A stretch of DNA of 64,000 nt from Gemmatimonadota bacterium (GTDB lineage Bacteria; JBHIER01; G020348925): contig CP070758.1 of assembly GCA_020348925.1 (NCBI GenBank), forward strand, positions 1,834,030-1,898,029, given 5' to 3'. Position 1 is the first letter of the stretch, and every line of letters starts with the position of its first letter. The translations under genes and the position numbers were made by a program. Under the pieces are notes generated by a model, which saw nothing but the letters and a program-made list of their open reading frames with translations, searched no databases and was not told the origin of the DNA. Of this stretch, positions 10,701 to 43,516 are shown one piece after another.

Positions 10701-11707
10701 CCCAGCTCACAAAGATCTGGGAGAAGGTTCTGGAGATTCAGCCCATCGGAGTTAGAGACAATTTCTTTGAACTGGGTGGGCACTCTCTGCTCGCAGTTCG
10801 CCTATTCTCGGAGATCAAGAAGGTCTTGGGAGTAAACTTCCCCCTATCCACCCTGTTTCAGGATTCAACTGTTGAAGATCTGGCCCATGTTATTCGCCAG
10901 GAGGCGTGCTCAGAGCCCTGGTCCTGTCTGGTACCGGTTCAGCCCGGCGGGACCAAGGTTCCATTCTTCTGTGCTGCACCGGCGGCCGGGGAGGCAATCG
11001 GCTTCGCCAACTTAGCCAGGTGTTTGGGATCTGAACAACCCTTCTACGGCCTGGAGCTTCCCACACCGGTTGGAGCACTTTCTGACCCACGAATTGAGGA
11101 TATGGCTGCTGAATGTATCCGGGAAATAAAAACGCTCCAGCCCGAAGGCCCCTATCTGTTGGGGGGAGCATGCATGGGAGGCCTGGTCGCTTTCGAGATG
11201 GCCTGCCAGCTTCACCAGCAAGGGAATGAAATCGCCGTGCTGGTTCTGTTGGATTCGAGCCAACCGGCTCCTCTGATAACGCTGCGGGATTATATCTCCC
11301 TTTTATTATTCCACCATTTGCCGCGTGGACATATGGCCTACTGTCTGATGAACGATTTGAGGGAGAAAGGAAGAAAATTGAAGCGGAAGTTCCTCTTGAG
11401 CCGTGAGGGTCGACGTTTCAAAAGTGTCTGGAAAGCTCATGAAAGAGCCCGGAGAACCTACGTGCCACGCCCTTATCCGGGGCGGATCACGCTCTTTGAG
11501 AGCCGGGAGTTCCATATTCGTTTTCCCGATTACGTGAATCGGTGGTCGGCCCTGGCTGAGGGAGGATTGGATCGCCACATCATACCCTGTGGCCATCGCG
11601 AAACCCTGAGAGAACCCCATGTCCGCATCGTCGCCGAGGAACTGAAAGCGCGCCTCAATGGAAAACTAATGAACGATGAAGGACATGGTAGCGCGATTAC
11701 CACATAA
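7697..11707 (+). CDS. NRPS module C-A-T-TE (Cys-type TE)
   Basis: HHIVSDGWS, YTSGTTGLPKG, NAYGPTE, GGHSLL; TE GPYLLGGACMGG...PCGH. ATGA overlap with the previous gene. Confidence 0.95.
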   Translation: MSGDQRAVGKVQFTPIMTPVSNKEAHEYSEEVFVFPTSFAQQRLWFLDRLEPQSPAYNIPIALRLKGRLNVRALERSFNEIVRRHEVLRTTFAEMDGQPVQVIAPSLRWRLKLVDVQELPEADREIETRRLAAEEAQRPFDLAQGPLLRTTLVRLKEKEHVLLLTVHHIVSDGWSTGILFREISVFYESFSAGKTSPLSELPIQYADFAVWQREWLQGETLEAQLSYWREQLAGAPPSLEFPTDRPRPLMQTYRGTRQFLVLSEKLTETIKALSQRAEVTPFMTLLAAFSVLLKRYTGQDDIVVGTPIAGRNRPEIEGLIGFFVNTLVMRTDLSGNPGFLEVLGRVREVCLGAYAHQDVPFEKLVEELRPERNLTQSPMFQVMFVLQNATDSALELKDVTLNSLEVDTGTAKFDLALSVIDGAEGLNGILYYNTDLFDAPTINRILKHYENLLEGIVADPEQTVSTLPLLTETERNRILVEWNDTVTDYPSTSCIHQLFEAQVERTPEAIAVQCEKKQLTYRELNARANQLAHYLQTHGVAPEVLVGICLEPSLDMVVGMLGILKAGGAYVPLDPAYPKERLTFMLSDSGASILLTHKTLSDNLPEHHARSIFLDSDLIRISQEEMGNPVCGATAWNLAYLIYTSGTTGLPKGVLIEHRGLCNLVESVKHYIGLKPGRRVLLSYSFGFDASANPIFTTLCSGATIYLAPANFLLRGTGIFQTMRHQAITDAFFPPSFLAALPFEPLPLLQTLTVGAEACPAVVISRWAPGRRFFNAYGPTEATIRATVAECTGDDWRPTIGRPIANTQVYILDRHLQPVPIGVPGELHIGGVGLARGYQNQPELTAEKFIPNPFGDEPGARLYKTGDLARSMPDGTIDFLGRFDHQVKIRGSRIELGEIETTLGQHPAVREVVVTVQAHESGDNRLVAYVVADQHTAPTVRELRSFLQEKLPEYMVPSTFVMLAGLPLTPHGKVDRQALPAPDRITSDLERTFIRARDALESQLTKIWEKVLEIQPIGVRDNFFELGGHSLLAVRLFSEIKKVLGVNFPLSTLFQDSTVEDLAHVIRQEACSEPWSCLVPVQPGGTKVPFFCAAPAAGEAIGFANLARCLGSEQPFYGLELPTPVGALSDPRIEDMAAECIREIKTLQPEGPYLLGGACMGGLVAFEMACQLHQQGNEIAVLVLLDSSQPAPLITLRDYISLLLFHHLPRGHMAYCLMNDLREKGRKLKRKFLLSREGRRFKSVWKAHERARRTYVPRPYPGRITLFESREFHIRFPDYVNRWSALAEGGLDRHIIPCGHRETLREPHVRIVAEELKARLNGKLMNDEGHGSAITT

Positions 11708-12153
11708 TATACCTGATCAGCACTGTTTGCGGATGGTTGGTGGCAGATGATGGGCAAAGCCTTTCGCGGCGGAACTGAACTTCTCTGGTCGGTTTCCGAA
11801 CGTTGTCCAGTGAGCCGGAGGTTGTGCAGAACTCGTACCAGACATGCCCAAGAGGATATCCCTTTTGGTTTTCTCTATAAGAAAAGAGAGAAAAATGACA
11901 GAGAATTATTGTCTGTCGTTTAAAGAATGATTTTATTATGGATATTGGTTTTAGAATAGTCTTGATCTGACTTTGACATACTCTCGATTTCGATGAAGAG
12001 CACCATGAAGCTCGAATCCAGATTTATGATGAATATGAACGATCGAGCGGCGCTGAGACCGATATCGATATCAATGGCGACACGTGCAATGCTCGCATTC
12101 AGTTTCACGCGATACATCCAGTGGTCCGAAATTCAGAAAAGAAAGGTGAGGTG

Positions 12154-12879: not shown

Positions 12880-12880
12880 A

Positions 12881-13564
12881 ATGACACACACCCTGCACCG
12901 TTTGGGAAACCCTCAGAGTTTGAGAAAGGATTTTATTGTCCTTGCCATTGCCTCGCAGATCGCTGGCCCCGTGGGGAGTGCCTACAAGTTCAGGGAATTT
13001 GCAGACATAGTATTAAAATACAATCCGTTGAATTTCGGAGACATGATATCCGGAAACATGTTTCAGATGGACTTAGATACGATCCACGCTGGTTACTGCG
13101 ACAATTCTATCGTTCATGCCGTCTTTACCGACGAACATATTGTGGCAAACGTATTGAAGGAATTGAAAGACGCCGATCTGGGACTCTCCATCGTCGTATC
13201 CGGTTTATTGGAACAGACGGCAACATGCTGCAGCACTGCAGGTTTGAAACCACACACTGTTCAATACTCGCTGGGGATCTTGGGGCGAACCGATCTCTTG
13301 CCACAGCCCTGGGTTTTGGAGATGAGTACGATGTGCGGCCACGGCATGGTAGCCTTCTCGCTCATTATAGAACTGGCAGATCGGGTAAAAGATCAGCGGA
13401 TTACGGCAGAAGAGGCGGCGCAAGGATTGGCAAGACAATGTCATTGCGGAGTCTTTAATCCTGACCGAGCAACCGGGATTCTGAAAAGGATAGTGACGAA
13501 AAAAAGCGGGAAAACCCAAGCTTCGAAGGCGTTCGAGAATGAACATGATGAAGCTCTTCGATGA
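12881..13564 (+). CDS. Conserved hypothetical Cys-rich protein, probable partner of the 4Fe-4S protein
   Basis: 227 aa ORF starting 1 nt after the previous stop; MTHTLHR start, STMCGHGMV and CHCGVFNP potential metal ligands. Confidence 0.75.
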   Translation: MTHTLHRLGNPQSLRKDFIVLAIASQIAGPVGSAYKFREFADIVLKYNPLNFGDMISGNMFQMDLDTIHAGYCDNSIVHAVFTDEHIVANVLKELKDADLGLSIVVSGLLEQTATCCSTAGLKPHTVQYSLGILGRTDLLPQPWVLEMSTMCGHGMVAFSLIIELADRVKDQRITAEEAAQGLARQCHCGVFNPDRATGILKRIVTKKSGKTQASKAFENEHDEALR

Positions 13565-15585
13565 GGATCCTGTCACATGGTGAAAGGCGAATGAATCGTA
13601 TGATCAATCATAAAACCGATACTCCCTCGTCACAAAAATCTGTTGGGAGCGGCCGCATCCGACCGACAAATCCTTTCATTCAATTTAAGAAAGAAGAAGT
13701 CGAGCAATCGATTCCTACCCGATTTGAGCAACAGGTGCGACAATACCCCGATCGGATGGCCATTAAGAGCAGGGACCACACGTTCACTTACGAGTCGCTC
13801 AACCAAGCAGCCAATCGAGTGGCGTGGGCAATTTGCGATCGTCACTCCCATGGCCATGATCCGATCGCTCTGTTGCTCGAACACGATGCACCAGCTCTCA
13901 TTGCAATGTTGGGTGTGCTGAAGGCCGGCAGGATATACGTGCCATTGGATCCGGGGTACCCTCCTGAACGACTCAGCTATATACTGGAGAATTGTCAGGT
14001 AGGACTCATCGTGACCAACAGCAAAAATCTCTCCCTGGCGAAAAAACTGACTCAAGATGCACTTACACTGCTCAATATTGATGATTTCAGTACCAGTCTC
14101 TCCACTGAGAACCTTGACCTCAAAATCTCACCGGACTCAGTCACCCACATCCTTTATACATCAGGCTCAACAGGAAAACCGAAAGGGGTTCCTCAGCTTC
14201 ATCGCAATGTTCTTCACGAAATTATGAACTATACAAACGCTGCTCATCTTTCCACGGAAGACCGAATGCTTCTTGTCTCCAGCTTCAGTTTTGGTGACTC
14301 AGTGAGGACTATTTACGGTGCTCTGCTCAATGGCGCTTCCCTCTTTCCACTGAACATCAAAGAGGAAGGATTCGTCTCTCTTTCCGACTGGATGATTGAG
14401 CAAGAGATCACTATTTACCGCTCGGTCCCGACAGTATTCCGGCATTTCGCCCGTACCCTGAGTAGAAAGATGGACTTCCCCGTAATTCGTTTGATCTACT
14501 TGGCGGGTGAACCCGTGTACAGAAGAGACGTGATGCTCTATCGAGATCATTTCTCGTCAGACTGTATTCTTGTCAATGGGCTGGGGAGCATCGAATCCCT
14601 CACATACCGATGGTATTTTCTCGACAAGAACGTCCACATCACGGGTACCAACGTGCCGGTTGGCTTTGCCATTGACGACATGGAGGTCCAATTGCTCGGA
14701 GACAACGGAAAGGAGGTTGGCGTCAACGAAATCGGTGAGATTGCAGTCAAGAGTCGCTATCTTTCCCCTGGTTACGGGCAAAACCCTGATCTCACGCGGC
14801 AGAAATTCCGGCCGGATCCAAAGGGGGGAGACGAACCCATTTATCTCACCGGAGATCTCGGTCTCTTGCTGCCCGACGAATGCCTCGTTCACATGGGTCG
14901 AAAGGACTTTCAGGTTAAGATCAGGGGCTACAGGGTGGAGACTGCTGAGATCGAGATGTTGTTGATGGAGTTAGACACTGTCAAAGAAACGGTTGTTGTG
15001 GCCCGGACGGATGCGTCTGGAGATAAATATCTGTCAGCGTATGTTGTTCCCATCGGAGACCCGGGGCCTGCAGTCGGCGAACTTCGGTCTTTTCTGGAGG
15101 GTCAGCTCCCCGAATACATGATGCCCTCGACCTTCGTCCTGTTGGATGCCATACCGCTGACTCCGAATGGTAAGGTCGATCGTCAGGCTCTGCCCGCGCC
15201 AGACGGCACGAGACCGTTATCGGATAATGCTTTCGCAGCTCCTGGCACGCCGCTTGAAGAAAGGATTGCAGATATCTGGGTCAAGGTTCTGGGATTAGAC
15301 CAAGTCGGAGTTCAGGACAACTTCTTCGAGCTGGGGGGGCACTCGCTGTCAGCAATACAAGCTGTGTCCAGGATGAGCGAAGCGTTCCAAGTGGCGTTGT
15401 CCCTCAGCAGCTTCTTCGAGACACCAACGATTGCTCAACTATCCAGGAAAATTGAGAGCATCAGGAGCGAAGGTGCTGGACCTCGGCCGCCTGCACTATC
15501 GCGGGTCCGCCGAGATTCGCACCATGCGAAGCTGTCCTCACAGGGAGTACCTGTGTCTATTGAGGATACACAGAATGAGGAATAA
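13561..15585 (+). CDS. Stand-alone A-T didomain with a non-canonical A domain
   Basis: YTSGSTGKPKG, YLTGD, GRKDFQVKIRGYRVE, PNGKVDR, GGHSLS. A4 is FSFGDSV and A5 is NGLGSIE (both atypical). Confidence 0.92.
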   Translation: MRILSHGERRMNRMINHKTDTPSSQKSVGSGRIRPTNPFIQFKKEEVEQSIPTRFEQQVRQYPDRMAIKSRDHTFTYESLNQAANRVAWAICDRHSHGHDPIALLLEHDAPALIAMLGVLKAGRIYVPLDPGYPPERLSYILENCQVGLIVTNSKNLSLAKKLTQDALTLLNIDDFSTSLSTENLDLKISPDSVTHILYTSGSTGKPKGVPQLHRNVLHEIMNYTNAAHLSTEDRMLLVSSFSFGDSVRTIYGALLNGASLFPLNIKEEGFVSLSDWMIEQEITIYRSVPTVFRHFARTLSRKMDFPVIRLIYLAGEPVYRRDVMLYRDHFSSDCILVNGLGSIESLTYRWYFLDKNVHITGTNVPVGFAIDDMEVQLLGDNGKEVGVNEIGEIAVKSRYLSPGYGQNPDLTRQKFRPDPKGGDEPIYLTGDLGLLLPDECLVHMGRKDFQVKIRGYRVETAEIEMLLMELDTVKETVVVARTDASGDKYLSAYVVPIGDPGPAVGELRSFLEGQLPEYMMPSTFVLLDAIPLTPNGKVDRQALPAPDGTRPLSDNAFAAPGTPLEERIADIWVKVLGLDQVGVQDNFFELGGHSLSAIQAVSRMSEAFQVALSLSSFFETPTIAQLSRKIESIRSEGAGPRPPALSRVRRDSHHAKLSSQGVPVSIEDTQNEE

Positions 15586-18500
15586 AGACAACTCAATGGG
15601 AAAACAAGTTTTTGTCTTTCCAACATCCTTTGCCCAGCAGCGTCTGTGGTTTCTCAATCAGTTGGATCCCGAAAATCCTGTCTATAATATACCGAGAGCT
15701 TTTCGGGTGACAGGTCCACTCGACGTTGAGGCCCTGGAGCACGGTCTCAACGAGATTATCAGACGTCACGAGATCTTACGGACGACGTTTTCTCATGTTG
15801 ACGGTGAACCGGTGCAGATTATTGCCGAAGCCATGCCCCTGAAGGTGTCGGTGATAGATATGGGTGACATTGAAACCATACCGGAAAGGAAGACCAAGCA
15901 GTTGATCATCGATGAGATACAGCGACCCTTCAACTTGTCACAGGGTCCACTCTTACGGGCGAACCTGCTCCGTCTGGCAGAGGAGGAACACATCCTGCTT
16001 CTTACGATACACCACATCGTGGCTGATGGCTGGTCGATGGGAATTCTTTATCAGGAGCTTTCTACACTCTATAAAGCCTTTGTTTCAAAGAGTCCGTTTT
16101 CCATGCCCGAGCTTCCGATTCAGTATGTCGACTTTGCCGTTTGGCAACGAGAATGGTTACAGGGAGAGATTTTGGAGACACAGCTTGCCTATTGGAGAGC
16201 ACAACTCAAAAGTGCGCCTCCCGTGTTGGAATTTCCGACCGACCACCCACGATCTCCAACGTCGACCTTCAGAGGCGCGAGGCAGTCCCTGGTACTGTCA
16301 AAAACGTTGGGAGAAGCACTCGATGCATTGAGCCAACGGGAAGGAGTCACCTTGTTTATGACACTGTTGGCAGCATTTACAGTTCTCCTCCATCGTTACA
16401 CAGGGCAGGACATCATTGTGGTGGGCACTCCTATTGCAGGTCGGAATCGACCCGAAATCGAAGGGCTGATTGGATTTTTTGTCAACACGCTGGTGATGAG
16501 CACCGACCTTTCAGGAAATCCCAGTTTTCGGGAAGTGCTTGTCCGGGTACGCGAGGTATGCCTGGGAGCTTACGACCATCAGGATCTCCCCTTCGAGACG
16601 CTGGTCGAGGAGTTGCGGCCGGAGCGAAACCTCAATCAATCACCGTTGTTTCAAATGATGTTCGCCCTCCAAAATGCTCCTGAATCCGATCTGATCCTCT
16701 CTGACGTAACAGTCCACTCTTTGGAAGTAAGCAACGGAAGAGCAAAATTTGACCTGGCGCTATCCATGGTGAAGGGGGCAGAAGGATTGACGGGAACAGT
16801 AGAGTACAGTACCGACCTGTTCGAGGCAGCCACCATAAAGCGGTTCCTGACGCATTATCAGAACGTGCTGGAAGCCATCGCGTCCGATCCCGAACAGTTG
16901 ATCTCAACGGTACCGCTCTTGACCCAAAAAGAACGCCATCAGATGCTGGTGGAGTGGAATGATGCGAAAGTGGACTATCCTCAGAATACGTGCATTCATC
17001 AATTGTTTGAAGAGTATGCCCTGCGGACACCTGAAGAAGTAGCCGTTGTTTTTGAGGGTCAGCAGATGACATATGAAGAACTCAACACACGATCAAACCG
17101 GCTGGCCCACTGTCTCATCAAGAACGGTGTGGGTCCCGAGACACTGGTTGGCATCTGTGTGGATCGATCCCTGGAGATGATGGTCGGACTTCTGGGTATC
17201 CTCAAAGCTGGAGGAGCGTACGTCCCCCTCAACCCTGACGATCCGGAGGAACGTCGAGCATTTATGTTGAAAAACGCCCGGGTTAGAGTGGTTCTAACGT
17301 TGGAGAGGCTGGTTCCTGAATTGCCGGAGTCGATGGCATCCGTTATTTGCCTGGATACGGAATGGTCGGCTCTGTCTCAGTACGGCGAAAAAAACCCGTC
17401 CAGTGGTGTTCAGGCTTCCAATCTGGCTTATGTGATGTACACTTCAGGTTCAACCGGCAAACCCAAAGGTGTGATGATTACTCACCGCAATGTGGTGGGA
17501 TTCCTATACTCGTACAAGCAGGTCACCTTAGATGGTGAGACGCGCGTCGGGACCTCAGTCGCTCCCTTCAGCTTCGACACGTCTGTGGAGGAATTCTTTT
17601 CGACGCTCTGTTTTGGCGGGACACTCCACCTTATTCGACCCGAACGCAGTGTCGATGGTGAGTACTTCGCACATTACCTGATTGATCACGGCATTACTAC
17701 CACTTACATTGTCCCCGCTCTCCTCCCTGAGATCGCATCCCACCTGGAGAGGATGAAAGACCGAATGAAGCTGGAGTGTGTGATAACTGGACTTCAACCC
17801 AAGACGGAAGAGGTCTTGCAGCATTTTCGAAACCTATCCGAAAATTTACGAATACTCAATGCCTACGGACCGACAGAGACCACGTATGGTGCGACCGCCT
17901 TCAACTTCAGACAAGCAACCTCGCCGGATAGGGATGTCCCGATTGGGGTCCCGTTCCCCAACTACCAAACCTACATTGTGGATTCAAATCTGAAACCGGT
18001 CCCCATAGGAGCACGGGGGGAGATCTTGATCGGCGGAATTGGCCTGGCCCGAGGGTATCTCCATCAGCCCGAGCTAACCGATGAGAAGTTCATACCCAAT
18101 CCGTTCAGTGACGAACCGGACGCGCGCCTGTACAGAACAGGGGATGTGGGCCGTTATCTGCCGGACGGTACTATCGAGTTCCTGGGACGCACGGATCATC
18201 AAGTGAAAATTCGGGGGTTTCGCATTGAACTTGGTGAGGTCGAGGTGCTGCTTGGACAGCATCCTGCTGTCCAGGAGACCGTGGTCTTGGCTCGAGAGGA
18301 TACACCCGGCGACAAGCGCCTCGTGGCATATCTGGTTATAAATCAGGAGTCCGCTCCTTCCACCAGTGAGCTCCGTCGTTTCTTGGGGAGAAAACTACCC
18401 GAGCACATGGTGCCGTCCGCTTTCGTGGTGTTGGACGCGCTCCCACTGACATCCAGTGGGAAAGTAGATCGTCAGGCACTGCCACCGCCCGACCAAGACC

Positions 18501-19552
18501 GACCCGAGCTGGAGGGTGCGTTCAAGGCCCCCCAAGATACCCTCGAACTCCACCTCACCAAGATTTGGGAAAAGGTTCTGGGCGTTCAGCCCATTGGTGT
18601 CAGGGACAATTTCTTTGAATTGGGCGGACATTCTCTGCTTGCGGTGCGCCTGTTCGAGCAGATCAAGAAGGTCTTGGGGAAAAGTCTGCCCCTGTCCACG
18701 TTATTCAAGGGTTCAACCGTTGAAGAATTGGCCCACGTTATTCGTCAGGAGGAGTGGTCGGACCCCTGGTCCTGTCTGGTGCCGATTCAACCCAGTGGTA
18801 CCAAGATTCCTCTTCTCTGTGTTGCACCGGCGGCCGGAGAGGTGATCAGTTTTGCCGGAATCTCTCGTTGTTTGGGACATGAGCAGCCCTTTTACGGGCT
18901 GCGTCTCCCCAGGGAGGATGGAGCATCCTTTTCTCTGCGAGTTGAGGATATGGCTGCTCAGTGCATTCGAGAGATAGAGACACTCCAGCCCGAAGGCCCC
19001 TATCTGCTGGGAGGGGCATGCATGGGAGGCTTGGTCGCTTTCGAAATGGCCTGCCAACTTCACGAGCAGGGGAAGGAAGTAGCCGTGTTGTTTCTGTTGG
19101 ATTCGAGTCAACCTCCGCCGTTGATATCACTTCGGAATTACATTCCGCAGTTGCTCTTCCACCACCTTCCGCGCGGACAATTGACGTACTGTCTCCTCAG
19201 GGACTTGAGGGAGAAGGGAAGGAAATTGAAACGGAAATTCCCCTTAAACCGTGAGGGTCGAAATTTGAGTAGCGTCTGGAAAGCTCACGAAAAAGCCCGA
19301 AGAGCCTACGTGCCTCGCGTATATCCGGGTCGCATCACCCTGTTTCAGAGCCGTGAGTTTCACATTCGTTTTCCCGATTGCGAGAATCGGTGGTCGGCTC
19401 TGGCTGAGGGAGGATTGGATTGCCACATCTTACCCTGTGGTCATGGTGAAAGCCTAAGAGAACCCCATGTCCGGATCTTGGCCGAGGAACTGAAAGCGCA
19501 CCTCACCGAGGTACAAGCGCGAAAGGGAACAGGGAGAACTAAACGGATTTGA
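15575..19552 (+). CDS. NRPS module C-A-T-TE (Cys-type TE)
   Basis: VFVFPTSFAQQRLWFL, HHIVADGWS, YTSGSTGKPKG, NAYGPTE, GGHSLL; TE GGACMGG. Start is 15575 (GAGGA RBS) or 15596, rather than the ORF-track 15431. Confidence 0.95.
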   Translation: MRNKDNSMGKQVFVFPTSFAQQRLWFLNQLDPENPVYNIPRAFRVTGPLDVEALEHGLNEIIRRHEILRTTFSHVDGEPVQIIAEAMPLKVSVIDMGDIETIPERKTKQLIIDEIQRPFNLSQGPLLRANLLRLAEEEHILLLTIHHIVADGWSMGILYQELSTLYKAFVSKSPFSMPELPIQYVDFAVWQREWLQGEILETQLAYWRAQLKSAPPVLEFPTDHPRSPTSTFRGARQSLVLSKTLGEALDALSQREGVTLFMTLLAAFTVLLHRYTGQDIIVVGTPIAGRNRPEIEGLIGFFVNTLVMSTDLSGNPSFREVLVRVREVCLGAYDHQDLPFETLVEELRPERNLNQSPLFQMMFALQNAPESDLILSDVTVHSLEVSNGRAKFDLALSMVKGAEGLTGTVEYSTDLFEAATIKRFLTHYQNVLEAIASDPEQLISTVPLLTQKERHQMLVEWNDAKVDYPQNTCIHQLFEEYALRTPEEVAVVFEGQQMTYEELNTRSNRLAHCLIKNGVGPETLVGICVDRSLEMMVGLLGILKAGGAYVPLNPDDPEERRAFMLKNARVRVVLTLERLVPELPESMASVICLDTEWSALSQYGEKNPSSGVQASNLAYVMYTSGSTGKPKGVMITHRNVVGFLYSYKQVTLDGETRVGTSVAPFSFDTSVEEFFSTLCFGGTLHLIRPERSVDGEYFAHYLIDHGITTTYIVPALLPEIASHLERMKDRMKLECVITGLQPKTEEVLQHFRNLSENLRILNAYGPTETTYGATAFNFRQATSPDRDVPIGVPFPNYQTYIVDSNLKPVPIGARGEILIGGIGLARGYLHQPELTDEKFIPNPFSDEPDARLYRTGDVGRYLPDGTIEFLGRTDHQVKIRGFRIELGEVEVLLGQHPAVQETVVLAREDTPGDKRLVAYLVINQESAPSTSELRRFLGRKLPEHMVPSAFVVLDALPLTSSGKVDRQALPPPDQDRPELEGAFKAPQDTLELHLTKIWEKVLGVQPIGVRDNFFELGGHSLLAVRLFEQIKKVLGKSLPLSTLFKGSTVEELAHVIRQEEWSDPWSCLVPIQPSGTKIPLLCVAPAAGEVISFAGISRCLGHEQPFYGLRLPREDGASFSLRVEDMAAQCIREIETLQPEGPYLLGGACMGGLVAFEMACQLHEQGKEVAVLFLLDSSQPPPLISLRNYIPQLLFHHLPRGQLTYCLLRDLREKGRKLKRKFPLNREGRNLSSVWKAHEKARRAYVPRVYPGRITLFQSREFHIRFPDCENRWSALAEGGLDCHILPCGHGESLREPHVRILAEELKAHLTEVQARKGTGRTKRI

Positions 19553-22187: not shown

Positions 22188-22266
22188 TTTAATTTTTTGT
22201 TCACTGACGGAAAGACTGTCGAATCACTTGAAGTACAATCCGCTTATTACGAAAAGGAACTCATGA

Positions 22267-23295: not shown

Positions 23296-23309
23296 ACCTG
23301 AAGACGCTT

Positions 23310-34951: not shown

Positions 34952-37900
34952 AGAACATAGATAATCATATTGAAGGACAGCGCCTCGAGCTGTCACCGGC
35001 AAAGCGAGTTTTTCTCGAAAGGCTCATGCGGGGTGAAGGGAGGAGAGAAGACCCATCGAGCCTCATACCCAAACGGACGGAGCAGAGCCCCGCCCCCCTC
35101 TCCTTTGCTCAGCAGCGGCTGTGGTTCCTGGATCAACTGGAGCCTCATAATCCCGCGTATACTGTCCCTATTGCCATGCGTCTGAAAGGCCGGCTGAATG
35201 TGGCAGCCCTGGAGCAAAGTCTCAATGAAATTGTGAGGCGCCACGAAGTCTTGCGGACGACCTTCTCCATGGTGGCTGGACAACCGGTTCAGGTTATCGC
35301 AGCAAGTCTAAATCTACATGTAACGGTGGTGGACGTCAGGGAGTTTCCTGAAGCTGCACGAGAAACAGAAGCTGGAAAGATAATCGCTGAAGAGGTGCAG
35401 CGACGGTTCGATCTATCCCAGGATCCACTCGTACGAGTTCATCTGCTGCGTCTGGAAGAGGAGGTGCACATCCTGCTGATCATAATGCACCACATCGTCT
35501 CTGATGAGTGGTCGATGAGGATATTCTTTCAGGAGCTTTCTATACTCTATAAGGCTTTGGTTAGAGGGGAGCCGTGGTCACTTCCGGAGCTTCCGATTCA
35601 ATATGCTGACTTTGCGGTTTGGCAGCGGAAGTGGTTGCGGGGGGATTTCTTGGACACACAGCGTTCCTATTGGAGGGAGCACGTTGCTGGTATGCCGCGG
35701 GTGTTGGAGCTCCCCACCGATCGTCCACGACCAGTAGTACAGACGTATCGTGGTGGACATCACTCACTGGTGCTGTCCAGAAATGCGACGCATTTGCTGA
35801 AGAGATTGAGCCAGCAAGAAGGGGCCACGCTGTTCATGACGTTGCTCTCTGTCTTCAAGACATTGCTCTTCCACTACACGGGTCAGGAAGATATCTTTGT
35901 GGGAACTCCTGTAGCCAATCGCAGCCGGACCGAGATCGAGGGATTGATCGGATTTTTCACCAACACATTGGTCTTGCGTACCGATCTTTCCGGCAATCCC
36001 ACCTTTCGAGAATTGATGAGACGTGCACGCGAAGTATGTTTGGGAGCCTACACGCATCAGGATGTGCCTTTTGAGAAACTGGTGGAGGAGTTGAAGCCCG
36101 AACGGAATCTCAATTATTCTCCTCTGTTTCAGGTGATGTTTGTTTTCCAGGATGAGACTGCTTTTGTTCCGGAACTCCCGGGCGTGCGTGTCAGTATGAT
36201 GCAGGTTGACAGCGGGACGTCGAAGTTCGATCTGACGTTGTTCATGCAGGAGGAGGAGGGTGGGCTTCGGGCCACGGTGGAGTATTCTTCGGATCTGTTT
36301 GATGCAGCGACAATCCGAAGGATGTTGAGACATCTGGAGGTGTTGGTGGAGGGGATTGTGACTGATCCTGATCGGCGTCTTACAGAGTTGCCGTTGTTGA
36401 CGGAGGTTGAGCGGCATCGGTTGCTGGTGGAATGGAACAAGACCCAATCGGATTACCCGGCAGATGTATGCGTTCATCAGCTCTTTGAGGTACAGGCAGA
36501 GCAGAGGCCTGATGGGATTGCCGTGGTCTTTGAAGATCAGCACCTCACCTACCGGGAACTCAATGCACGGGCCAACCAACTGGCTCACTACCTCAAAGAG
36601 CGCGGCGTGGGACCCGACGTTCCAGTAGGCATTTTCGCGGGGCGTTCGTTGGACATAGTCATAGGTTTATTAGGTATCCTCAAGGCCGGTGGGGTGTATG
36701 TTCCCCTGGACCCATGCTATCCCAAAGATCGTCTGGCCTTTCAGTTACAGGATACTTGTGTACCGCATCTGTTGACTCAAAAGCGGCTGATGCCAGAGCT
36801 TCCCGAACATAATGTGAATGTAATCTGTTTGGACTCGCACTGGGACATCATTGCTCAAGAGGGTATAGATAATACTGTCAGCGGGGCCCAGCCCGAGAAT
36901 TTGATTTACATACTCTATACCTCAGGATCGACAGGACGACCCAAGGGTGTTGCCATCCCCCATGGTTCCATAGTCAACCTGATAACGTGGCAACTCCATC
37001 AGACTGACCTGCCCCAAGGTGCCAAGACGCTGCAGTACAATTCATTCAGCTTTGACGCCTGTTTCATGGATATCTTTATGAGTTGGTGCTCAGGCGACAC
37101 ATTGTTCATCGTGCCGGAACCCGTACGGCAGGACATCACTGGATTGGCGCGATTCATTGCAGATCATGGCATCGAACGACTCAATCTCCCCTTTATCGTA
37201 CTTGAGCATTTGGCTACCATGTGGGATGCTGGGGAGAAGCCGCCACAGTGCATGAGGGAGATCATCAGCACGGCTGAACAATTGCACGTAAGTCAGCCTC
37301 TCAGGAGACTATTCGCTCAATTACCCCATTGTCTCCTGTTCAATCACTACGGTCCCTCCGAGACTCACGTCGTCACCGCCTTCGCACTGACGGGACCACC
37401 GGGTAACTGGCCAGAATTTCCTGCCATAGGACGGCCCATAGCCAACACACGTACCTATATCTTGGATATAAGTTTTTGCCCTGTCCCGGTGGGGCTGCCC
37501 GGTGACCTGTACATTGGGGGTGTCAGCTTGGCTCGCGGCTATCTGGATCGGCCGGAATTGACGGCGGAGCGTTTTGTTCCGAATCCCTTCGGTGACGAGT
37601 CGGAGGCACGGATATATAAGACCGGAGACGTGGCCCGTTACTCACCGGATGGAAATATCGAGTACCTGGGCCGCATGGATCACCAGGTGAAACTCCGCGG
37701 TTTCCGCATCGAGTTGGGGGAGATCGAGGCCGTTTTGAACCAGCACTCTGGGGTGAAGGAGGCCGTGGTACTGGCCAGGGAGGGATGGGCTCAGGAGAAG
37801 CGCTTGGTCGCCTATGTTGTCCCGAATCAGACGGGAGCGCTTCTCAGCAGCGAACTGCGCGGTTTCCTGAAACAGAAGCTTCCGGAGTACATGGTGCCCT

Positions 37901-39522
37901 CGGTTTTTGTGACGCTGGAAGCCCTGCCGTTGACGTCGAGCGGCAAGGTGGACCGCGGGGCGCTTCCTGTACCTGGTCAGAGACGACCTGAGCTGGAAGT
38001 GACCTTTGCCCCTCCCAGGACGTCTGTTGAAGAAATGCTGAGGGGGATCTGGACCGAGGTCCTCGGTCTTGAGCAGGTCGGTATCCGCGACAACTTCTTT
38101 GAGCTGGGAGGACATTCTCTGCTGGCTGTGAAACTGGTGTCGAGGATGTCGCTGGCGCTGAATCGCGAAATATCGGTCAGGTTTCTCTTTCAACACCCCA
38201 CCATTGCCGACTGCAGCGAAGCGATAGAGAATCTTCACCAGGCTGGTGAATCCCCGCAGGCTCAGGAGTATAGTGGTGTCTCCTCCCTCCCTCACGGTGG
38301 ACCCTCTGAACTCTCCCTGTCACCCTTCCTGCAGATCGAGCACCGCCCACTCTTACCATTGTTTACAGAGGGGAAGATTCCTCCTGTTGATGCGGCGGCT
38401 CTGGGATATTTTCCCGACAGTCTTCTGAGGCGCACTGATGTGACCCGCGATGAAATAATTGATAGGTGGTGTGACGGCCACCCGTCCTTGAAAGTTCACA
38501 TCGAGACCTCTTTAGGCCGAATTGCCCTCATACTGCTGCCTCGATTTCATTCCGAGCTGTACAAAGATGAGGACGACCTCGTGCGGGTCATTCTCGAAGC
38601 GCTGGAACTGGCTGTTCGGACTGGGGCAAGCACTGTCTCTCTTTCAGGACTGATCCCTTCGGCCACGGACTACGGTCGCTCCATCGAGGCAGCACGCTCC
38701 AAGCGGGTGGATGTGCCGATGATTACCACCGGACACGCTACAACCGCCGCCACAGTCGTGTTGGCTGTAAAAAAGATTTTACATGAAGGCGGGCGGGACC
38801 TGGCCCGGGAGCGGGTTGGGTTCCTGGGTTTGGGATCCATCGGGCAGGCGACCCTTCGTCTGATGCTGAACTGTCTGCCCCATCCACTGGAGATCACACT
38901 GTGTGATGTCTACAGCAAGCTCGATTTCCTGGAAAGAATCCGGCGGGAGCTCATCGATGATTTGGGATTTCAAGGTCCCGTCCGGCTCAGTCAATCACGG
39001 CTGGACGTACCACCGGAGTTTGATGAGGCCAGCCTGATCGTCGGGGCCACCAATGTACCCGACATTCTGGATATCCGGCGCGTCAATCCCGGAACAATGA
39101 TGGTTGATGATTCCGGACCTCATTGTTTCGTTGTCAGGAATGCTATCAGACGTCTTCAGGAGCAGGAAGATATTCTCTTTACCGAAGGCGGAGTGCTCCG
39201 ATCGCCGCATCCCATCCGTCAGCTCAGATACGTACCGCGTTCGGAGGAAAAAATGATGGATCCTGCCCAGAGGGAAGCCCTTATGAATTTCAATCCCTTT
39301 CACATAACGGGTTGTGTTCTCTCCGGCCTCCTTTCCTCACGCTTTGAGGACCTCCCGCCGACGGTGGGACTCGTCGACGATCAATCATGCAATGCGCACT
39401 ACGATCGGCTCAGTCGATTAGGATTTCAAGGCGCCGACCTAACTTGTGAGAGCTACGTGCTTCCCGAAAAATCGATTCACAGCTTCCGGAACCGTTTCGG
39501 GGGAGTGGACCAGGATGAGTGA
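34948..39522 (+). CDS. NRPS module C-A-T plus a C-terminal NAD(P)-binding domain resembling acyl-ACP reductase
   Basis: HHIVSDEWS, NHYGPSETHVVT (Pro-family A5), GGHSLL; then ITTGHATT, GFLGLGSIG, VDDSGPH, TEGG, TGCVLSGLL. Confidence 0.92.
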   Translation: MKNIDNHIEGQRLELSPAKRVFLERLMRGEGRREDPSSLIPKRTEQSPAPLSFAQQRLWFLDQLEPHNPAYTVPIAMRLKGRLNVAALEQSLNEIVRRHEVLRTTFSMVAGQPVQVIAASLNLHVTVVDVREFPEAARETEAGKIIAEEVQRRFDLSQDPLVRVHLLRLEEEVHILLIIMHHIVSDEWSMRIFFQELSILYKALVRGEPWSLPELPIQYADFAVWQRKWLRGDFLDTQRSYWREHVAGMPRVLELPTDRPRPVVQTYRGGHHSLVLSRNATHLLKRLSQQEGATLFMTLLSVFKTLLFHYTGQEDIFVGTPVANRSRTEIEGLIGFFTNTLVLRTDLSGNPTFRELMRRAREVCLGAYTHQDVPFEKLVEELKPERNLNYSPLFQVMFVFQDETAFVPELPGVRVSMMQVDSGTSKFDLTLFMQEEEGGLRATVEYSSDLFDAATIRRMLRHLEVLVEGIVTDPDRRLTELPLLTEVERHRLLVEWNKTQSDYPADVCVHQLFEVQAEQRPDGIAVVFEDQHLTYRELNARANQLAHYLKERGVGPDVPVGIFAGRSLDIVIGLLGILKAGGVYVPLDPCYPKDRLAFQLQDTCVPHLLTQKRLMPELPEHNVNVICLDSHWDIIAQEGIDNTVSGAQPENLIYILYTSGSTGRPKGVAIPHGSIVNLITWQLHQTDLPQGAKTLQYNSFSFDACFMDIFMSWCSGDTLFIVPEPVRQDITGLARFIADHGIERLNLPFIVLEHLATMWDAGEKPPQCMREIISTAEQLHVSQPLRRLFAQLPHCLLFNHYGPSETHVVTAFALTGPPGNWPEFPAIGRPIANTRTYILDISFCPVPVGLPGDLYIGGVSLARGYLDRPELTAERFVPNPFGDESEARIYKTGDVARYSPDGNIEYLGRMDHQVKLRGFRIELGEIEAVLNQHSGVKEAVVLAREGWAQEKRLVAYVVPNQTGALLSSELRGFLKQKLPEYMVPSVFVTLEALPLTSSGKVDRGALPVPGQRRPELEVTFAPPRTSVEEMLRGIWTEVLGLEQVGIRDNFFELGGHSLLAVKLVSRMSLALNREISVRFLFQHPTIADCSEAIENLHQAGESPQAQEYSGVSSLPHGGPSELSLSPFLQIEHRPLLPLFTEGKIPPVDAAALGYFPDSLLRRTDVTRDEIIDRWCDGHPSLKVHIETSLGRIALILLPRFHSELYKDEDDLVRVILEALELAVRTGASTVSLSGLIPSATDYGRSIEAARSKRVDVPMITTGHATTAATVVLAVKKILHEGGRDLARERVGFLGLGSIGQATLRLMLNCLPHPLEITLCDVYSKLDFLERIRRELIDDLGFQGPVRLSQSRLDVPPEFDEASLIVGATNVPDILDIRRVNPGTMMVDDSGPHCFVVRNAIRRLQEQEDILFTEGGVLRSPHPIRQLRYVPRSEEKMMDPAQREALMNFNPFHITGCVLSGLLSSRFEDLPPTVGLVDDQSCNAHYDRLSRLGFQGADLTCESYVLPEKSIHSFRNRFGGVDQDE

Positions 39523-42500
39523 ACGATCACCCCTCTACCCCACGTCCTGTGCTCAGCAGCAACTGTGGTTTCAGGCCCAGTTGGATCCGGAGAGTCACGT
39601 TTCTAATATTGCCTCCGCGGTGCGCTTGCATGGTTCCCTCCGTGTACCGGCGTTGGAGCGGAGTCTCGATGAGATTGCTCGACGCCACAAAGCCTTGCGG
39701 ACGACTTTCCTGACCAGAGCGGGACAACTCAAACAGGTTGTGGCACAATCCTCAATACCGCGGTTACCGGTACACGACCTGACGGTGTTCCCTGAGAGTG
39801 AGCGGGAGGATGAAGCCAGACGACTGCTCACAGAGAAAGCGCGTCGCCCTTTTGATCTGGCCACAGGTCCACTTTTTTTGGCAGGCATACTCCGGCTGGG
39901 GGTGGATGATCATATCCTTTTTACAGTAATGCACCGAATCATCGCGGATAATTGGTCCTTGGGTATATTTTTTCAGGAATTCTTTATTCTTTACGAGGCT
40001 TACTCCACCGGAAAATCCTCGCCCCTTCCGGAGCTCACTACGCAGTATCACAAGTTTGCTCAGTGGCAATGTAAGTGGATGAAGAGCAAATCAGCCGAGG
40101 AACAGCTCTCATATTGGAAACAGCGACTCGCTCATGTTCCGTTCACGGTGAATCTCCCTACCGACGGCTCACGTCACGGCTCGCGACGAATCCACCAGGG
40201 TGCAACGCAGTCACTGATGCTGCCTGAATCACTGTCTCACTCCCTCAGAGCCCTGAGCCATCAGGAGGAGGTTACCTTACCCACTATTTTACTGGCCGCC
40301 TGGCACGTGCTGCTGTATCGCTACACGAATCAGGGTGAGATTGTCGTCGGATTTACCACTGAAGGCCGCAGGCGCTCGGGGATGGAGGAACCGATTGGAT
40401 TATGTAGCAATATCCTGGCCCTGCGAATGCCGCCAGTGCGAGACAATCCTGCTTTCAGGGAGCTGCTGAAGCGGATGCGCGGAGTGATCCTGGAAGCGTA
40501 TGCCAACCAGGATGTACCCTTTGAGAATGTGATGGAGGAACTGCAATCGCAAGGGGACTTGGACCGCACGCCTCAGTTTCAGGTCGCCTTCCAATTCGAT
40601 CATCGCCCTGATGTGGCTTCAAAGCCGCACGGCTTGGACGTGAAAGACTTCGAGTTTGAAAAAGGAATTTCAAGGCATGATGTAACCCTGAAGATTGTAG
40701 AGAAGGTGGAAGAACTCTCCTGCTCTTTCGAGTACAACACCGACCTGTTTGAGGCGACGACCATCGCCCGGATGGGATGGCATTTCAAGAGATTGTTGGA
40801 AGGCATTGTAGATCAGCCGGATGAGGTCATCTCGGATTTGCCGCTGTTGACGGAAGGCGAATGGCATCAACTCCTTGTGGAGTGGAATACGGTTCGAGTC
40901 GAGAACTTTAAGGAGGAATTTTATCATCGGAGTTTTGAGTTTCAAGCCGAACGATTGTCAGACGCGGTGGCGGTCGTGTTTGAGGGTGAGCACTTGACAT
41001 ATCAGGAGTTGAATGTGCGAGCAAACCAATTGGCGCACTATTTACAAGCTCTGGGTGTAGGACCTGACGTACTTGTAGGGATGTGTATGGAGCGTTCTCC
41101 GGAGTTGGTCGTTGGAGTGCTCGCAACTCTCAAGGCAGGCGGGGCTTGCGTGCCTCTGGATCCGACATTTCCAGAGGACTGGTTTGCTTTTGTCTTGGAA
41201 GACACGGATGTTCAGGTCGTATTAACGCAAGACCGTTTGCTCAAGAAGCTTGCCGGGCACACAGGTCATGTGATCTGTTTGGATTCGGCCCAGGAGAACT
41301 GGGATCGAGAAAGCACAGAAAATCCGGTTCGTGATATAACGAGCGAAAATTTATCATTTGTGTACTACACCTCCGGCTCAACAGGTATTCCCAAAGCCGT
41401 GATGCAGCCGTACCGCAAAGTTGACACAACCGAGTCACTTGTTTCATTTACAGAAGAGGATCGACATCTGTTCAAAGCATCCATCGGCTTTACTCCCTTC
41501 GGTGCTGAGATTCTCACGCCTTTGATGACGGGTGGAAAAATGATTATTGCTGAGCCGGGACGGAGTCAGGACAGCACCTATCTCGTTCCATTGATTACCA
41601 AGCATACGGTGACGTATATCAGTGTTGTGCCTGCGATGCTACGAATGCTTCTGGAGCAGGATGAAATTGAAACATGTCGTAGCCTGAAACATGTCCTTTC
41701 CTTCGGTGAACCATTGCCCCATGACCTCCGAGAGCGCTTTTTCACTCGGACGGCTGCGAACCTGTACGTCTTATACGGCACCACCGAAGCACCCAGCGCG
41801 ACCTTCAAGATGTGCCAGCGCGGGGATGATGCATCGAGTAGTGGCGGTTTCTCCATAGGTCGGCGCCTGTCCGGAAACCGGATCCATATTATGTCTCTCA
41901 TGGGCGGGATGCAACCGGTTCCCATTGGCGTGCCGGGAGAGCTCTGTTGCAGCGGTTTTAACCTGGCTCGAGGGTATCTCAACCGTCCAGACTTGACTGC
42001 GGAGAGGTTCGTTCCAGATCCCGTCGGTGATGAGCCGGGAGCGCGCCTATATAAAACCGGAGACTTGGCTCGCTACCTGCCTGATGGGAACATCGAGTTC
42101 CTCGGCCGTATCGATCACCAGGTGAAACTCCGCGGCCTCCGTATCGAGCTTGCAGAGATCGAGGCAATACTGAGGCAGCACGTGACTGTCTTCGAGGTCG
42201 CCGTCGTGATGAGGGAAGACGAACCCGGGAATAACCGACTTGCAGCCTACGTGGTTCCCAATCAAGGGTCTACAATTTCCATCAGCGAACTCCGAAGTTT
42301 CCTAAGGGTGAAGCTTCCCGAGTACATGGTGCCTTCCGCTTTTGTTGAGCTGGATGCACTGTCCCTGACACGCAACGGGAAAATTGATCGTCAGGCTCTG
42401 CCAGCACCCGACAGGGTCAGACCCGAACAGGGAAGAGCTTTCATTGCACCTCGGGATGCGCTGGAAAATCACCTGGTAAAGATATGGGAAAAGCTTCTGG

Positions 42501-43516
42501 GCATCAAACCCATCGGTGTCAGGGACAGCTTCTTCGATCTGGGCGGACATTCACTTCTCGCAGTGCGCTTGTTCGCACAGATCGAAAAGATGCTTGATAA
42601 AAAACTTTCCCTGGCAAATCTCCTCGAGGCACCGACGGTTGAGCAGCTCGCTGGCCTTCTTCGCCAGGAAGGCGAGCCAGCACACTGGTCTTCATTAGTG
42701 GCCATTCAATCCGAAGGCACCAAACTGCCCTTCTTCTGGGTACCTCCGGCCGCGGCTGATGTCATCAGCTTGGCAGATCTCGCCAGGCATCTGGGACCGG
42801 ATCGACCCTTCTATGGACTCCAACCTCTGGGATTGGAGGGGAATCAATCTCCCCATGCCCACGTTGAGGAGATGGCCGCCCATTATATAAAAGAAATACG
42901 CAACATTCAGTCTGAAGGTCCTTATCTTTTGGGAGGAATCTGTTTCGGAGGCATTGTGGCGTTCGAGATGGCTTGCCGGCTTCATGAGCAAAATGACTCT
43001 GTGGCTTTCCTTGCTCTCTTGGATTCCAGTCAGCCACCCCCCCTGATATCGCTGCGGGATTATGTTCCCCGTTTACTCCTCCACCATTTACCGAGGGGAC
43101 AATTGACCTACTGTCTCAAGAAAGACCTGAGAGAGAAGGGAACAAAGTGGAAATGGAAGCTGTCCCGGAGTCATGGAGGCCGCCGTTTCTACAGGGTGTG
43201 GAATGTTCATGAAACGGCACGGAGAGCATACGTACCCCGTCCTTATCCGGGTCGGATCACCCTCTTTGAGAGCCGCGAATTTCGCATTCGTTTTCCCGAT
43301 TACGAGGCCCGGTGGTCCGCGCTGACCGAGGAGGGTTTGGATTGTCACACCATAGCGTGCGATCATGGCGATTTCCTGCATGAACCCTATGTCCGGATCG
43401 TCGCCGAGAAATTGAAAAACTGCCTCGAGGGTGTACCCTCTCAGAACGATGCTGGGAGAAATAAAAAGACTGCGTTGTCAAGAGCCCCCATTATAAACAG
43501 GGAGTTGTTAGGTTGA
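39515..43516 (+). CDS. NRPS module C*-A*-T-TE with a degenerate C motif, non-canonical A domain and Cys-type TE
   Basis: MHRIIADNWS (no second His), YTSGSTGIPKA, GFTPFGAE, LYGTTE, GGHSLL; TE GGICFGG. Start at ATG 39515 after GGGAG. Confidence 0.92.
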   Translation: MSERSPLYPTSCAQQQLWFQAQLDPESHVSNIASAVRLHGSLRVPALERSLDEIARRHKALRTTFLTRAGQLKQVVAQSSIPRLPVHDLTVFPESEREDEARRLLTEKARRPFDLATGPLFLAGILRLGVDDHILFTVMHRIIADNWSLGIFFQEFFILYEAYSTGKSSPLPELTTQYHKFAQWQCKWMKSKSAEEQLSYWKQRLAHVPFTVNLPTDGSRHGSRRIHQGATQSLMLPESLSHSLRALSHQEEVTLPTILLAAWHVLLYRYTNQGEIVVGFTTEGRRRSGMEEPIGLCSNILALRMPPVRDNPAFRELLKRMRGVILEAYANQDVPFENVMEELQSQGDLDRTPQFQVAFQFDHRPDVASKPHGLDVKDFEFEKGISRHDVTLKIVEKVEELSCSFEYNTDLFEATTIARMGWHFKRLLEGIVDQPDEVISDLPLLTEGEWHQLLVEWNTVRVENFKEEFYHRSFEFQAERLSDAVAVVFEGEHLTYQELNVRANQLAHYLQALGVGPDVLVGMCMERSPELVVGVLATLKAGGACVPLDPTFPEDWFAFVLEDTDVQVVLTQDRLLKKLAGHTGHVICLDSAQENWDRESTENPVRDITSENLSFVYYTSGSTGIPKAVMQPYRKVDTTESLVSFTEEDRHLFKASIGFTPFGAEILTPLMTGGKMIIAEPGRSQDSTYLVPLITKHTVTYISVVPAMLRMLLEQDEIETCRSLKHVLSFGEPLPHDLRERFFTRTAANLYVLYGTTEAPSATFKMCQRGDDASSSGGFSIGRRLSGNRIHIMSLMGGMQPVPIGVPGELCCSGFNLARGYLNRPDLTAERFVPDPVGDEPGARLYKTGDLARYLPDGNIEFLGRIDHQVKLRGLRIELAEIEAILRQHVTVFEVAVVMREDEPGNNRLAAYVVPNQGSTISISELRSFLRVKLPEYMVPSAFVELDALSLTRNGKIDRQALPAPDRVRPEQGRAFIAPRDALENHLVKIWEKLLGIKPIGVRDSFFDLGGHSLLAVRLFAQIEKMLDKKLSLANLLEAPTVEQLAGLLRQEGEPAHWSSLVAIQSEGTKLPFFWVPPAAADVISLADLARHLGPDRPFYGLQPLGLEGNQSPHAHVEEMAAHYIKEIRNIQSEGPYLLGGICFGGIVAFEMACRLHEQNDSVAFLALLDSSQPPPLISLRDYVPRLLLHHLPRGQLTYCLKKDLREKGTKWKWKLSRSHGGRRFYRVWNVHETARRAYVPRPYPGRITLFESREFRIRFPDYEARWSALTEEGLDCHTIACDHGDFLHEPYVRIVAEKLKNCLEGVPSQNDAGRNKKTALSRAPIINRELLG

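Follow-up and report, generated by a model that had tools for sequence, protein, structure and literature searches.

Four cysteine-type thioesterases with canonical triads in the sole non-ribosomal peptide synthetase cluster of a Gemmatimonadota bacterium

Thioesterases (TEs) of non-ribosomal peptide synthetases (NRPSs) that carry a nucleophilic cysteine are described as a class comprising "~2% of known TEs" that clusters with Ser-type cyclases (PMC13288461), and members whose triad aspartate occupies the canonical site have been characterized since 2017. Here we describe four such domains, TE1 to TE4, encoded by an NRPS gene cluster of a Gemmatimonadota bacterium (GenBank assembly GCA_020348925.1, contig CP070758.1). 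The window, meaning the whole stretch of DNA that was analyzed, is 64,000 nucleotides long (contig positions 1,834,030 to 1,898,029, forward strand), and the coordinates below count from its first letter. We propose, with a probability of roughly 55%, that the four are intact, working Cys-type type I TEs that use a canonical Cys-Asp-His triad and whose short acyl or peptidyl chains are released to a nucleophilic nitrogen.

Release in this class favors amide formation over hydrolysis. MacB-TE, of the macolacin pathway, uses Cys89, Asp116 and His218 to close a macrolactam through the side-chain amine of diaminobutyric acid, with the hydrolysis product reported as undetectable, and its C89S variant is reported to give hydrolysis only (PMC13288461). 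BulbE-TE, of the bulbiferamide pathway, has the triad Cys961, Asp988 and His1097, with the Asp at the end of β6, unlike ObiF-TE and SulM-TE (PMC11536411); it acylates an indole nitrogen, its Ser mutant hydrolyzes (PMC11536411, PMC11792885), and its nearest solved folds are the Pks13 and NocB TEs (PMC11792885). PMB-TE, of the polymyxin pathway, is cited as another Cys-type TE with a canonical Asp (PMC13288461, PMC11792885, PMC11536411). Thioester acyl-enzymes are described as strongly activated for aminolysis and not for hydrolysis (PMC11536411), and Cys-type TEs are sought as biocatalysts since the thioester lets weak nucleophiles beat water (PMC13288461, PMC11792885). In ObiF1 and SulM, the triad Asp is reported to have moved to another strand, a RifR-like "position II", and both group with type II TEs (PMC6668435, PMC11298585). 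AB3403 of Acinetobacter baumannii is described as the only other structurally characterized TE with a nucleophilic Cys, and its Asp is at position I, after β6 (PMC11298585). Its operon has been tied to acinetin 505, a small, lipopeptide-like molecule in which non-standard linkages occur (PMC5376624).

Four thioesterases with a Cys-Asp-His triad

TE1 to TE4 are type I NRPS/polyketide synthase (PKS) thioesterases of the PF00975 α/β hydrolase fold in which the nucleophile is Cys and not Ser. Each PF00975 match lies C-terminal to a PP-binding (carrier, T) domain (4/4 in Pfam), with scores of 82.3, 80.7, 95.0 and 81.1 bits for TE1 to TE4 against a cut-off of 26.4, and PF00975 matches nothing else in the 5,038,017-base single-contig genome. 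According to Pfam, TE1 (~10913-11704, + strand, as are all cluster genes) ends a termination module of condensation (C), adenylation (A), T and TE domains, C-A-T-TE, which is the third protein of line 1 (7697..11707). TE2 (~18761-19549) ends the C-A-T-TE termination module of line 2 (15575..19552), whose open reading frame (ORF) is already open from 15431; a start at 15575, the likely ATG, yields the recorded form of 1325 aa (P0005). TE3 (~26688-27464) belongs to the single-module A-T-TE protein of line 3 (24846..27467). TE4 (~42683-43513) ends a stand-alone C-A-T-TE protein (39515..43516), the ORF of which is open from 39446 and the ATG of which, at 39515, overlaps the stop codon upstream.

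An earlier note on this DNA, drawn from its letters, had reported Cys in place of the catalytic Ser in all four domains, together with a downstream His, and on both points it was accurate. The nucleophile elbows all read G-x-C-x-G (GACMG, GACMG, GMCFG and GICFG), with the Cys codons at exactly the reported positions: TGC at 11171-11173, 19019-19021 and 26946-26948 and TGT at 42941-42943. None of the four TE domains contains a G-x-S-x-G string, such strings in these proteins being confined to C or A domains. The His lies in PCGH, PCGH, PGDH and ACDH (codons 11594-11596, 19442-19444, 27384-27386 and 43364-43366), 141 or 146 residues after the Cys. An Asp follows the Cys by 27 residues in 4/4 (LLDS or LLDT; codons 11252-11254, 19100-19102, 27027-27029 and 43022-43024). 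TE2, TE3 and TE4 are 74%, 43% and 60% identical to TE1. When the four are aligned, Cys87, Asp114 and His228 do not vary.

In an AlphaFold2 (AF2) model of TE1 (pLDDT 92.2, pTM 0.90), Cys87 is predicted to lie between strand 81-86 and helix 88-102, with the His after strand 219-224. The triad Asp, which the earlier note had wished to see located in such a model, is predicted to stand directly after strand 107-113, as Asp114, which is position I. Of 45 aligned relatives, at least 90% retain this residue. Some 30 residues ahead of the His, nothing is conserved among the four TEs, which have Glu, Gln, a hydrophobic residue and Glu in this place.

The domains could also be inactive relics, since some relatives lack the nucleophile: 10 of 183 TE stretches in one sample described below (with Gly, Ala, Asp, Asn or Gln) and 11 of 124 in another (with Gly, Ala or Thr). 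However, Cys, Asp and His are present in 4/4, the frames of all four TE-bearing ORFs are open, and the fold is predicted with confidence, making this the least plausible of the readings considered here. The GGxS site is also kept in every carrier domain of the cluster.

Both structure and sequence place the four domains with AB3403. The best Foldseek matches of the TE1 model in the Protein Data Bank (PDB) are type I TEs, namely the Sky TE (7crn), the Pks13 TE, AB3403 (4zxh, rank 6), Vlm2, EntF and NocB, with E values from 8e-18 to 1e-14 in the top rows; neither ObiF1 nor SulM is among the matches listed, to rank 50. A single-sequence search of the PDB gave 36 distinct sequences at E ≤ 0.01, with AB3403 (elbow GWCFG) third-best; all are type I TEs except RifR (E 0.0078) and the free-standing surfactin thioesterase 2k2q, both near the bottom of the list, and ObiF1 and SulM are absent. 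With a profile built from 45 family members, AB3403 came first (236.4 bits, E 5e-69), followed by 7crn (167.6 bits). SulM and ObiF1 reached 55.0 bits (profile positions 2-119) and 50.7 bits (positions 3-182), respectively; these scores stem largely from the carrier domain included in the matched stretches. Thus, with Cys in 4/4, a position I Asp at +27 in 4/4 and sequence kinship to AB3403, the window TEs are Cys-type TEs with a canonical Asp, of the AB3403 kind. Three marks of the ObiF1/SulM class, namely a position II Asp, a Gln-Cys-Asn motif (a trait of SulM) and grouping with type II TEs, were not found in them.

For these reasons we set aside ObiF1 and SulM, which the earlier note had offered as comparators: the Asp is at position I, no Gln-Cys-Asn surrounds the nucleophile, and AB3403 scores 236 bits with the profile against 50.7 and 55.0. 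Formation of a β-lactone or β-lactam ring, as in ObiF1 and SulM, would be consistent with a Cys nucleophile and short chains, and ObiF1 is itself described as a C-A-T-TE module (PMC6668435). Yet the placement of the Asp and the structural searches argue against such chemistry, as does the absence, from two of the four terminal A domains, of the Asp that binds the α-amino group, and we consider a four-membered ring very improbable. For genome mining, it follows that GxCxG alone does not predict β-lactone or β-lactam chemistry, and that the position of the Asp needs checking too.

Cysteine and serine among relatives

The earlier note had cautioned that GxCxG TEs occur in other, uncharacterized NRPSs; this is right and, if anything, understated. 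We collected three samples of related TEs, which overlap in sequence space and are not independent. The first consisted of the best 150 of 35,260 matches of TE1 among representative clusters, including P0005, the window's own TE2 protein; its 183 TE stretches divide into 97 with Cys, 76 with Ser and 10 with another residue. The second, 117 foreign proteins of 734-2338 aa, contains 124 TE stretches, 46 with Cys, 67 with Ser and 11 with Gly, Ala or Thr, and the share of Cys drops with rank: it is 14 of 25 stretches for ranks 1 to 20 and 5 of 18 for the 20 lowest ranks. The third, 80 metagenome loci found by peptide patterns that flank the nucleophile without fixing it, gave 85 TE stretches, 14 with Cys and 71 with Ser, and Cys is present in five of the six best-scoring loci. 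The share of Cys is therefore 16-53% across the three samples, so that in TE space near AB3403 the residue is not rare, against the "~2% of known TEs" given for the class as a whole (PMC13288461). Ser is present in all five loci that come from species genomes, in a GxSxG motif otherwise nearly identical to the window's.

On a FastTree phylogeny of 186 TE stretches, the Cys/Ser label needs 23-25 parsimony changes, of which at least seven are forced by well-supported branches, and none of 500 shuffles of the labels needed as few. The Cys/Ser state is therefore heritable, yet labile. TE1, TE2 and TE4 fall within a clade of eight distinct sequences that are all Cys (support 99), itself nested in a clade of 43 rows, of which 39 have Cys, 1 has Ser and 3 have another residue (support 96). 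In an IQ-TREE analysis of 69 rows, TE1 and TE2 pair with a support of 99 and TE4 joins them at 82, and we therefore conclude that these three arose by duplication within the cluster. TE3 groups in the free tree of the same rows with two foreign Cys-type TEs (support 94). However, a tree constrained to unite the four window TEs is worse by 14.8 log-likelihood units, and the test does not reject it (AU p = 0.305). The earlier note's argument that duplication alone does not explain the four cysteines is thus not established. Four independent draws from relatives with a 16-53% share of Cys would make an all-Cys result unlikely, but since at least three of the TEs are mutual duplicates the four are not independent draws, and on either tree descent from Cys-type ancestors suffices to account for them.

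How the two residues alternate matters for the main rival explanation, namely that the TEs simply hydrolyze their chains to free acids and that Cys is a near-neutral alternative to Ser. The repeated changes on the tree and the Cys:Ser counts of the three samples (97:76, 46:67 and 14:71) speak for such neutrality. The mutational step is also small, as Cys (TGY) and Ser (TCY) codons differ by one base; in the third sample 70 of 71 Ser codons are TCN, and 41 of the 71 are TCC or TCT, one base from TGC or TGT. Furthermore, thioesters and oxoesters are described as hydrolyzing at similar rates (PMC11536411). On the other hand, in every Cys-type TE tested in the cited papers the Cys is reported to be needed for the non-hydrolytic outcome (PMC13288461, PMC11792885, PMC11536411, PMC6668435), and Cys is clustered on the tree, with TE1, TE2 and TE4 inside the clade in which 39 of 43 rows have it. 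We regard plain hydrolysis as unlikely, although it is the alternative to be taken most seriously.

Some further features of the relatives were observed. Many carry two or three TE domains in tandem (P0014, P0019, P0023, P0046, P0068, P0102, P0156 and P0158), and several of the tandem pairs join a Cys-type TE to a TE-like domain with Gly, Ala or Asp at the nucleophile position, which is presumably non-catalytic. In some relatives, the Cys-type TE has Asn, Gly or Glu at the Asp position. Among metagenome loci with an uncut 5′ end, Cys-type proteins have a median of 918 aa upstream of the nucleophile (n = 8) and Ser-type proteins one of 1208 aa (n = 36; Mann-Whitney p = 0.027), a comparison between small samples of non-independent kin that we do not use as evidence; Cys-type TEs also terminate proteins of 3,396-4,515 aa in the representative set.

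Short assembly lines, a terminal amidation domain and the route of release

The NRPS proteins make up five separate short lines encoded in an operon-like array. Line 1 is A-T, C-A-T, C-A-T-TE1, with its upstream modules A-T at 2346-4235 and C-A-T at 4269-7700; line 2 is A-T, C-A-T-TE2, with its loading A-T at 13561..15585; and line 3 is A-T-TE3. These assignments rest on Pfam and an alignment of the A domains. Line 4 (28374..39522) was read, from Pfam and a PDB search, as C-A-T, C-A-T and C-A-T followed by a terminal amidation domain (TAD). Since the TAD stands at the end of 34948-39522, the C-A-T-TE4 protein at 39515-43516 is a stand-alone module. We also considered line 4 and the last C-A-T-TE as a single line and rejected this arrangement, since the TAD closes C-A-T/C-A-T/C-A-T-TAD as a complete line.

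The TAD was recognized from a stretch of ~424 residues (38248..39522) after the carrier domain of 34948-39522 that has no Pfam match. Over 394 residues it matches the TAD of CarI (PDB 9e4s/9e4x) with 473 bits (E 8e-141). It has a TTG motif at 38725-38733 and a conserved Cys at 39313-39315, 196 residues apart, the spacing also reported between Thr2042 and Cys2238 (bioRxiv 10.1101/2024.10.28.620694). On this sequence match the domain is a TAD, and the cluster has five release domains rather than four. TADs have been proposed to act through an acyl-S-Cys intermediate that is attacked by ammonia, and their activity was not reconstituted in vitro in the paper concerned (bioRxiv 10.1101/2024.10.28.620694). 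If the TAD does work through acyl-S-Cys, a cysteine thioester would be common to all five of the cluster's release domains. The succession of a TAD and a C-A-T-TE gene with overlapping stop and start codons seems to be an unusual arrangement.

What the lines load can be judged in part from the A domains, four of ten of which (those of 2346-4235, 13561-15585, 24846-27467 and 39515-43516) lack Asp235, the residue that binds the α-amino group. Specificity codes were read from a hand-anchored alignment with positions taken from GrsA numbering and are provisional; on this reading the terminal A domains have the codes DANFTGAIRK and DTEYIGAYGK, and two lack Asp235. A further mark of the ObiF1/SulM class to which these codes relate is a last A domain that selects a β-hydroxy or β-amino (DAP) amino acid. 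The four modules without Asp235 probably load acids other than α-amino acids. The A domain of 2346-4235 resembles fatty-acyl or acyl-CoA ligases, and that of 13561-15585 shares 47% identity with that of 24846-27467. The C domains also differ. With the C domain of 7697-11707 as the sole query, the first C domain of line 4 is only 27% identical and the other five are 46-68% identical. At about residue 140, the C domain of 39515-43516 reads MHRIIADNWS, with HRxxxDN in place of HHxxxDG, whereas the other six keep both His residues and three of them vary only at the last Gly (Ala, Ala and Glu). Because of this motif and the lack of the α-amino-binding Asp in its A domain, the last C-A-T-TE module may not form a peptide bond in the usual way.

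Under the reading we prefer, in which the TEs release their chains to nitrogen, the acyl or peptidyl chain would pass from each TE's own carrier domain to its Cys87 by transthioesterification. By analogy with MacB-TE and BulbE-TE, the acyl-S-enzyme would then be resolved by a nitrogen or otherwise weak nucleophile, not by water. A large macrolactam is unlikely, as the chains have only one to three units. As the chains are short and the α-amino-binding Asp is missing from two of the four terminal A domains, a local or external nucleophile is favored over a distal residue; likelier candidates would be an amine on the side chain of the last residue, another chain, or a separate amine. Release could thus occur by lactamization onto the last side chain, by oligomerization of the EntF or Vlm2 type, or by transfer to a separate amine. 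The Cys on which this chemistry would depend is inherited, TE1, TE2 and TE4 being duplicates within an all-Cys clade and TE3 standing among Cys-type relatives. The earlier note had reasoned from the Cys to non-hydrolytic release, and this agrees with what is reported of ObiF1, SulM, PMB-TE, MacB-TE and BulbE-TE (PMC6668435, PMC11298585, PMC13288461, PMC11792885, PMC11536411); it is the choice of ObiF1 and SulM as the model that fails. If intermolecular aminolysis or small-ring lactamization does occur here, it would widen the scope of the class, whose characterized members act on long peptides, and would provide compact ligases.

Several observations weigh against release to nitrogen. Ser and Cys swap often among close relatives, and the Ser relatives share a nearly identical motif, so the Cys could be near-neutral. 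No amine-supplying partner conserved beside related Cys-type TEs was found by tblastn of 85 loci or in a Pfam scan of seven loci. The characterized Cys-type TEs close large rings on long peptides, and the window's lines have one to three modules. Finally, the Ser mutant of BulbE-TE is reported to have still used a primary amine (PMC11792885), and Cys is therefore not strictly needed for aminolysis by a good amine.

The presence of five short lines in one array allows two broader readings. In the first, the Cys-type TEs would serve as acyl shuttles, moving chains between carriers or to the C domain of another line and so joining the five lines into one product. The stand-alone Cys transferases SyrC and CmaE follow such a logic. 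Line 4 and the last C-A-T-TE protein both begin with a C domain and for this reason require a donor, and thioester-to-thioester transfer would be energy-neutral, as has been said of ObiF (PMC6668435). Nevertheless, the TEs are ordinary type I domains fused at the C-terminus, the solved structures closest to them belong to releasing TEs, and there is no sequence sign of a second carrier-binding site; we think shuttling improbable.

In the second, a more speculative extension of release to nitrogen that we hold to be rather unlikely, every release domain, the TAD included, would work through a cysteine thioester because the five lines do not make five products but are branches of one convergent assembly, whose TEs discharge by intermolecular aminolysis onto a shared amine scaffold (for example, an amino sugar made with the help of DegT, GT4 and Wzx proteins encoded at 43513-47477) or onto the side-chain amines of another line. 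An amino-sugar acceptor, which the earlier note had suggested, is a candidate from gene neighborhood alone, as the DegT, GT4 and Wzx genes lie between the last TE and the phosphopantetheinyl transferase (PPTase) gene. If this were true, TE-driven, carrier-independent ligation would be the organizing principle of a branched non-ribosomal product.

Gene neighborhood and likeness to known systems

The accessory genes are likewise on the + strand. At the 5′ edge, 317..1222 encodes a homologue of the arylamine N-acetyltransferase (NAT) family (PF00797, with a score of 36 bits and a cut-off of 22.8). In this Cys-His-Asp family, relatives are reported to act as amide synthases (manumycin NATs; bioRxiv 10.64898/2026.04.15.718676), and the protein is a possible amide-forming transferase that could be a further transacylase of the pathway. 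Upstream of the line 2 loader, 12121-13564 encodes a ferredoxin-like protein with two 4Fe-4S motifs and then a 227-aa protein without a family match. A 42%-identical homologue of the latter (L015:1-243) lies directly upstream of a Cys-type A-T-TE gene in the metagenome locus L015, where a PPTase gene follows. Between lines 2 and 3 (19812..24853) are genes for a TonB-dependent receptor, an NMT1/SsuA-type binding protein, an ABC ATPase and a permease. An MbtH-like protein is encoded at 27620..28207 (PF03621, 68.5 bits); its MbtH-like domain comprises residues 2-54 and is fused to an extension of ~140 aa that has an odd, weak match to eukaryotic CBF_beta (28.2 bits against a cut-off of 25). The 3′ end (43513..48250) encodes a Wzx/MATE-like flippase, a GT4 glycosyltransferase, a DegT-family aminotransferase and an Sfp-type PPTase, whose best NCBIfam model is HetI with 209.6 bits, below the cut-off of 370. 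A DUF4416 protein is also among the accessory genes. Downstream of the cluster, a 720-aa ORF (49008-51170) and a 338-aa ORF (53626-54642) have no Pfam match at E ≤ 1e-5.

When 12 window proteins were compared by tblastn with the 85 related loci, only homologues of the MbtH and PPTase proteins recurred, and no homologue of the DegT, Wzx, NAT or TonB-receptor proteins was found in these loci. A Pfam scan of 37 ORFs from seven Cys-type loci found glycosyltransferases near the TE in two (L050 and L084). We discount a link between glycosyltransferases and Cys-type TEs, as two of seven are too few and glycosyltransferases are too common.

The cluster is the only NRPS of its genome: by tblastn, 7/7 C-domain and 10/10 carrier-domain matches fall inside the window, and the only matches outside it are three weak, A-domain-like ones with 25-27% identity. 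Neither this TE nor the cluster was found in any of 40 other genomes searched. The one other genome of the phylum, which is 87% complete, has no PF00975 match; in the set searched, the phylum consists of two species genomes. The GC content of the cluster is 0.524 and that of the genome 0.497, which puts the cluster in the top 2.9% of 48-kb windows. This difference is not decisive for horizontal transfer of the cluster, since the upstream flanks also have 0.51-0.52; the 16 kb after the PPTase gene have 0.447.

In kind, then, the four TEs are no surprise: they join a known minority class of release enzymes, which is not that of ObiF1 and SulM. What is unusual is their setting, with four Cys-type TEs on very short lines, together with a TAD, in the sole NRPS cluster of a genome whose phylum, with two species genomes in the set searched, is very small. 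The cluster is thus a reasonable target for product discovery and for TE enzymology.

Among known systems, AB3403 (ABBFA_003403, the orthologue of A1S_0115; PDB 4zxh/4zxi) is closest. Like three of the four window proteins it is C-A-T-TE, it shares the Cys nucleophile (GWCFG) and the canonical Asp after β6, and it is the best solved match of the family profile. It is, however, only ~25% identical to TE1 in a structural alignment, and it occurs singly, in a lipopeptide-like operon that also encodes an acyl-CoA synthetase, a dehydrogenase and an acyl carrier protein (ACP) (PMC5376624).

BulbE-TE and MacB-TE share with the window TEs the distance of 27 residues from Cys to Asp, a kinship judged from published residue numbers and descriptions only, and the Pks13 and NocB TEs are fold neighbors common to BulbE-TE and TE1. 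They and PMB-TE differ in that their substrates are hexa- to decapeptides, on which they form rings of at least 15 atoms; the lines of the window comprise one to three modules. The TADs of CarI, VatR and HcaD (PDB 9e4s and others) resemble the window TAD in the TTG motif, the invariant Cys, the spacing of 196 residues and a position C-terminal to a carrier domain; as a difference, in the window a further C-A-T-TE gene follows, its start overlapping the stop of the TAD gene. With ObiF1 and SulM, which act on short chains and release them non-hydrolytically, the window TEs share the Cys nucleophile. ObiF1, however, has a Gly at the canonical Asp site, where the window TEs have Asp, and instead of a Gln-Cys-Asn motif as in SulM, which also has an arginine-rich pocket, the window TEs have A-C-M, A-C-M, M-C-F and I-C-F.

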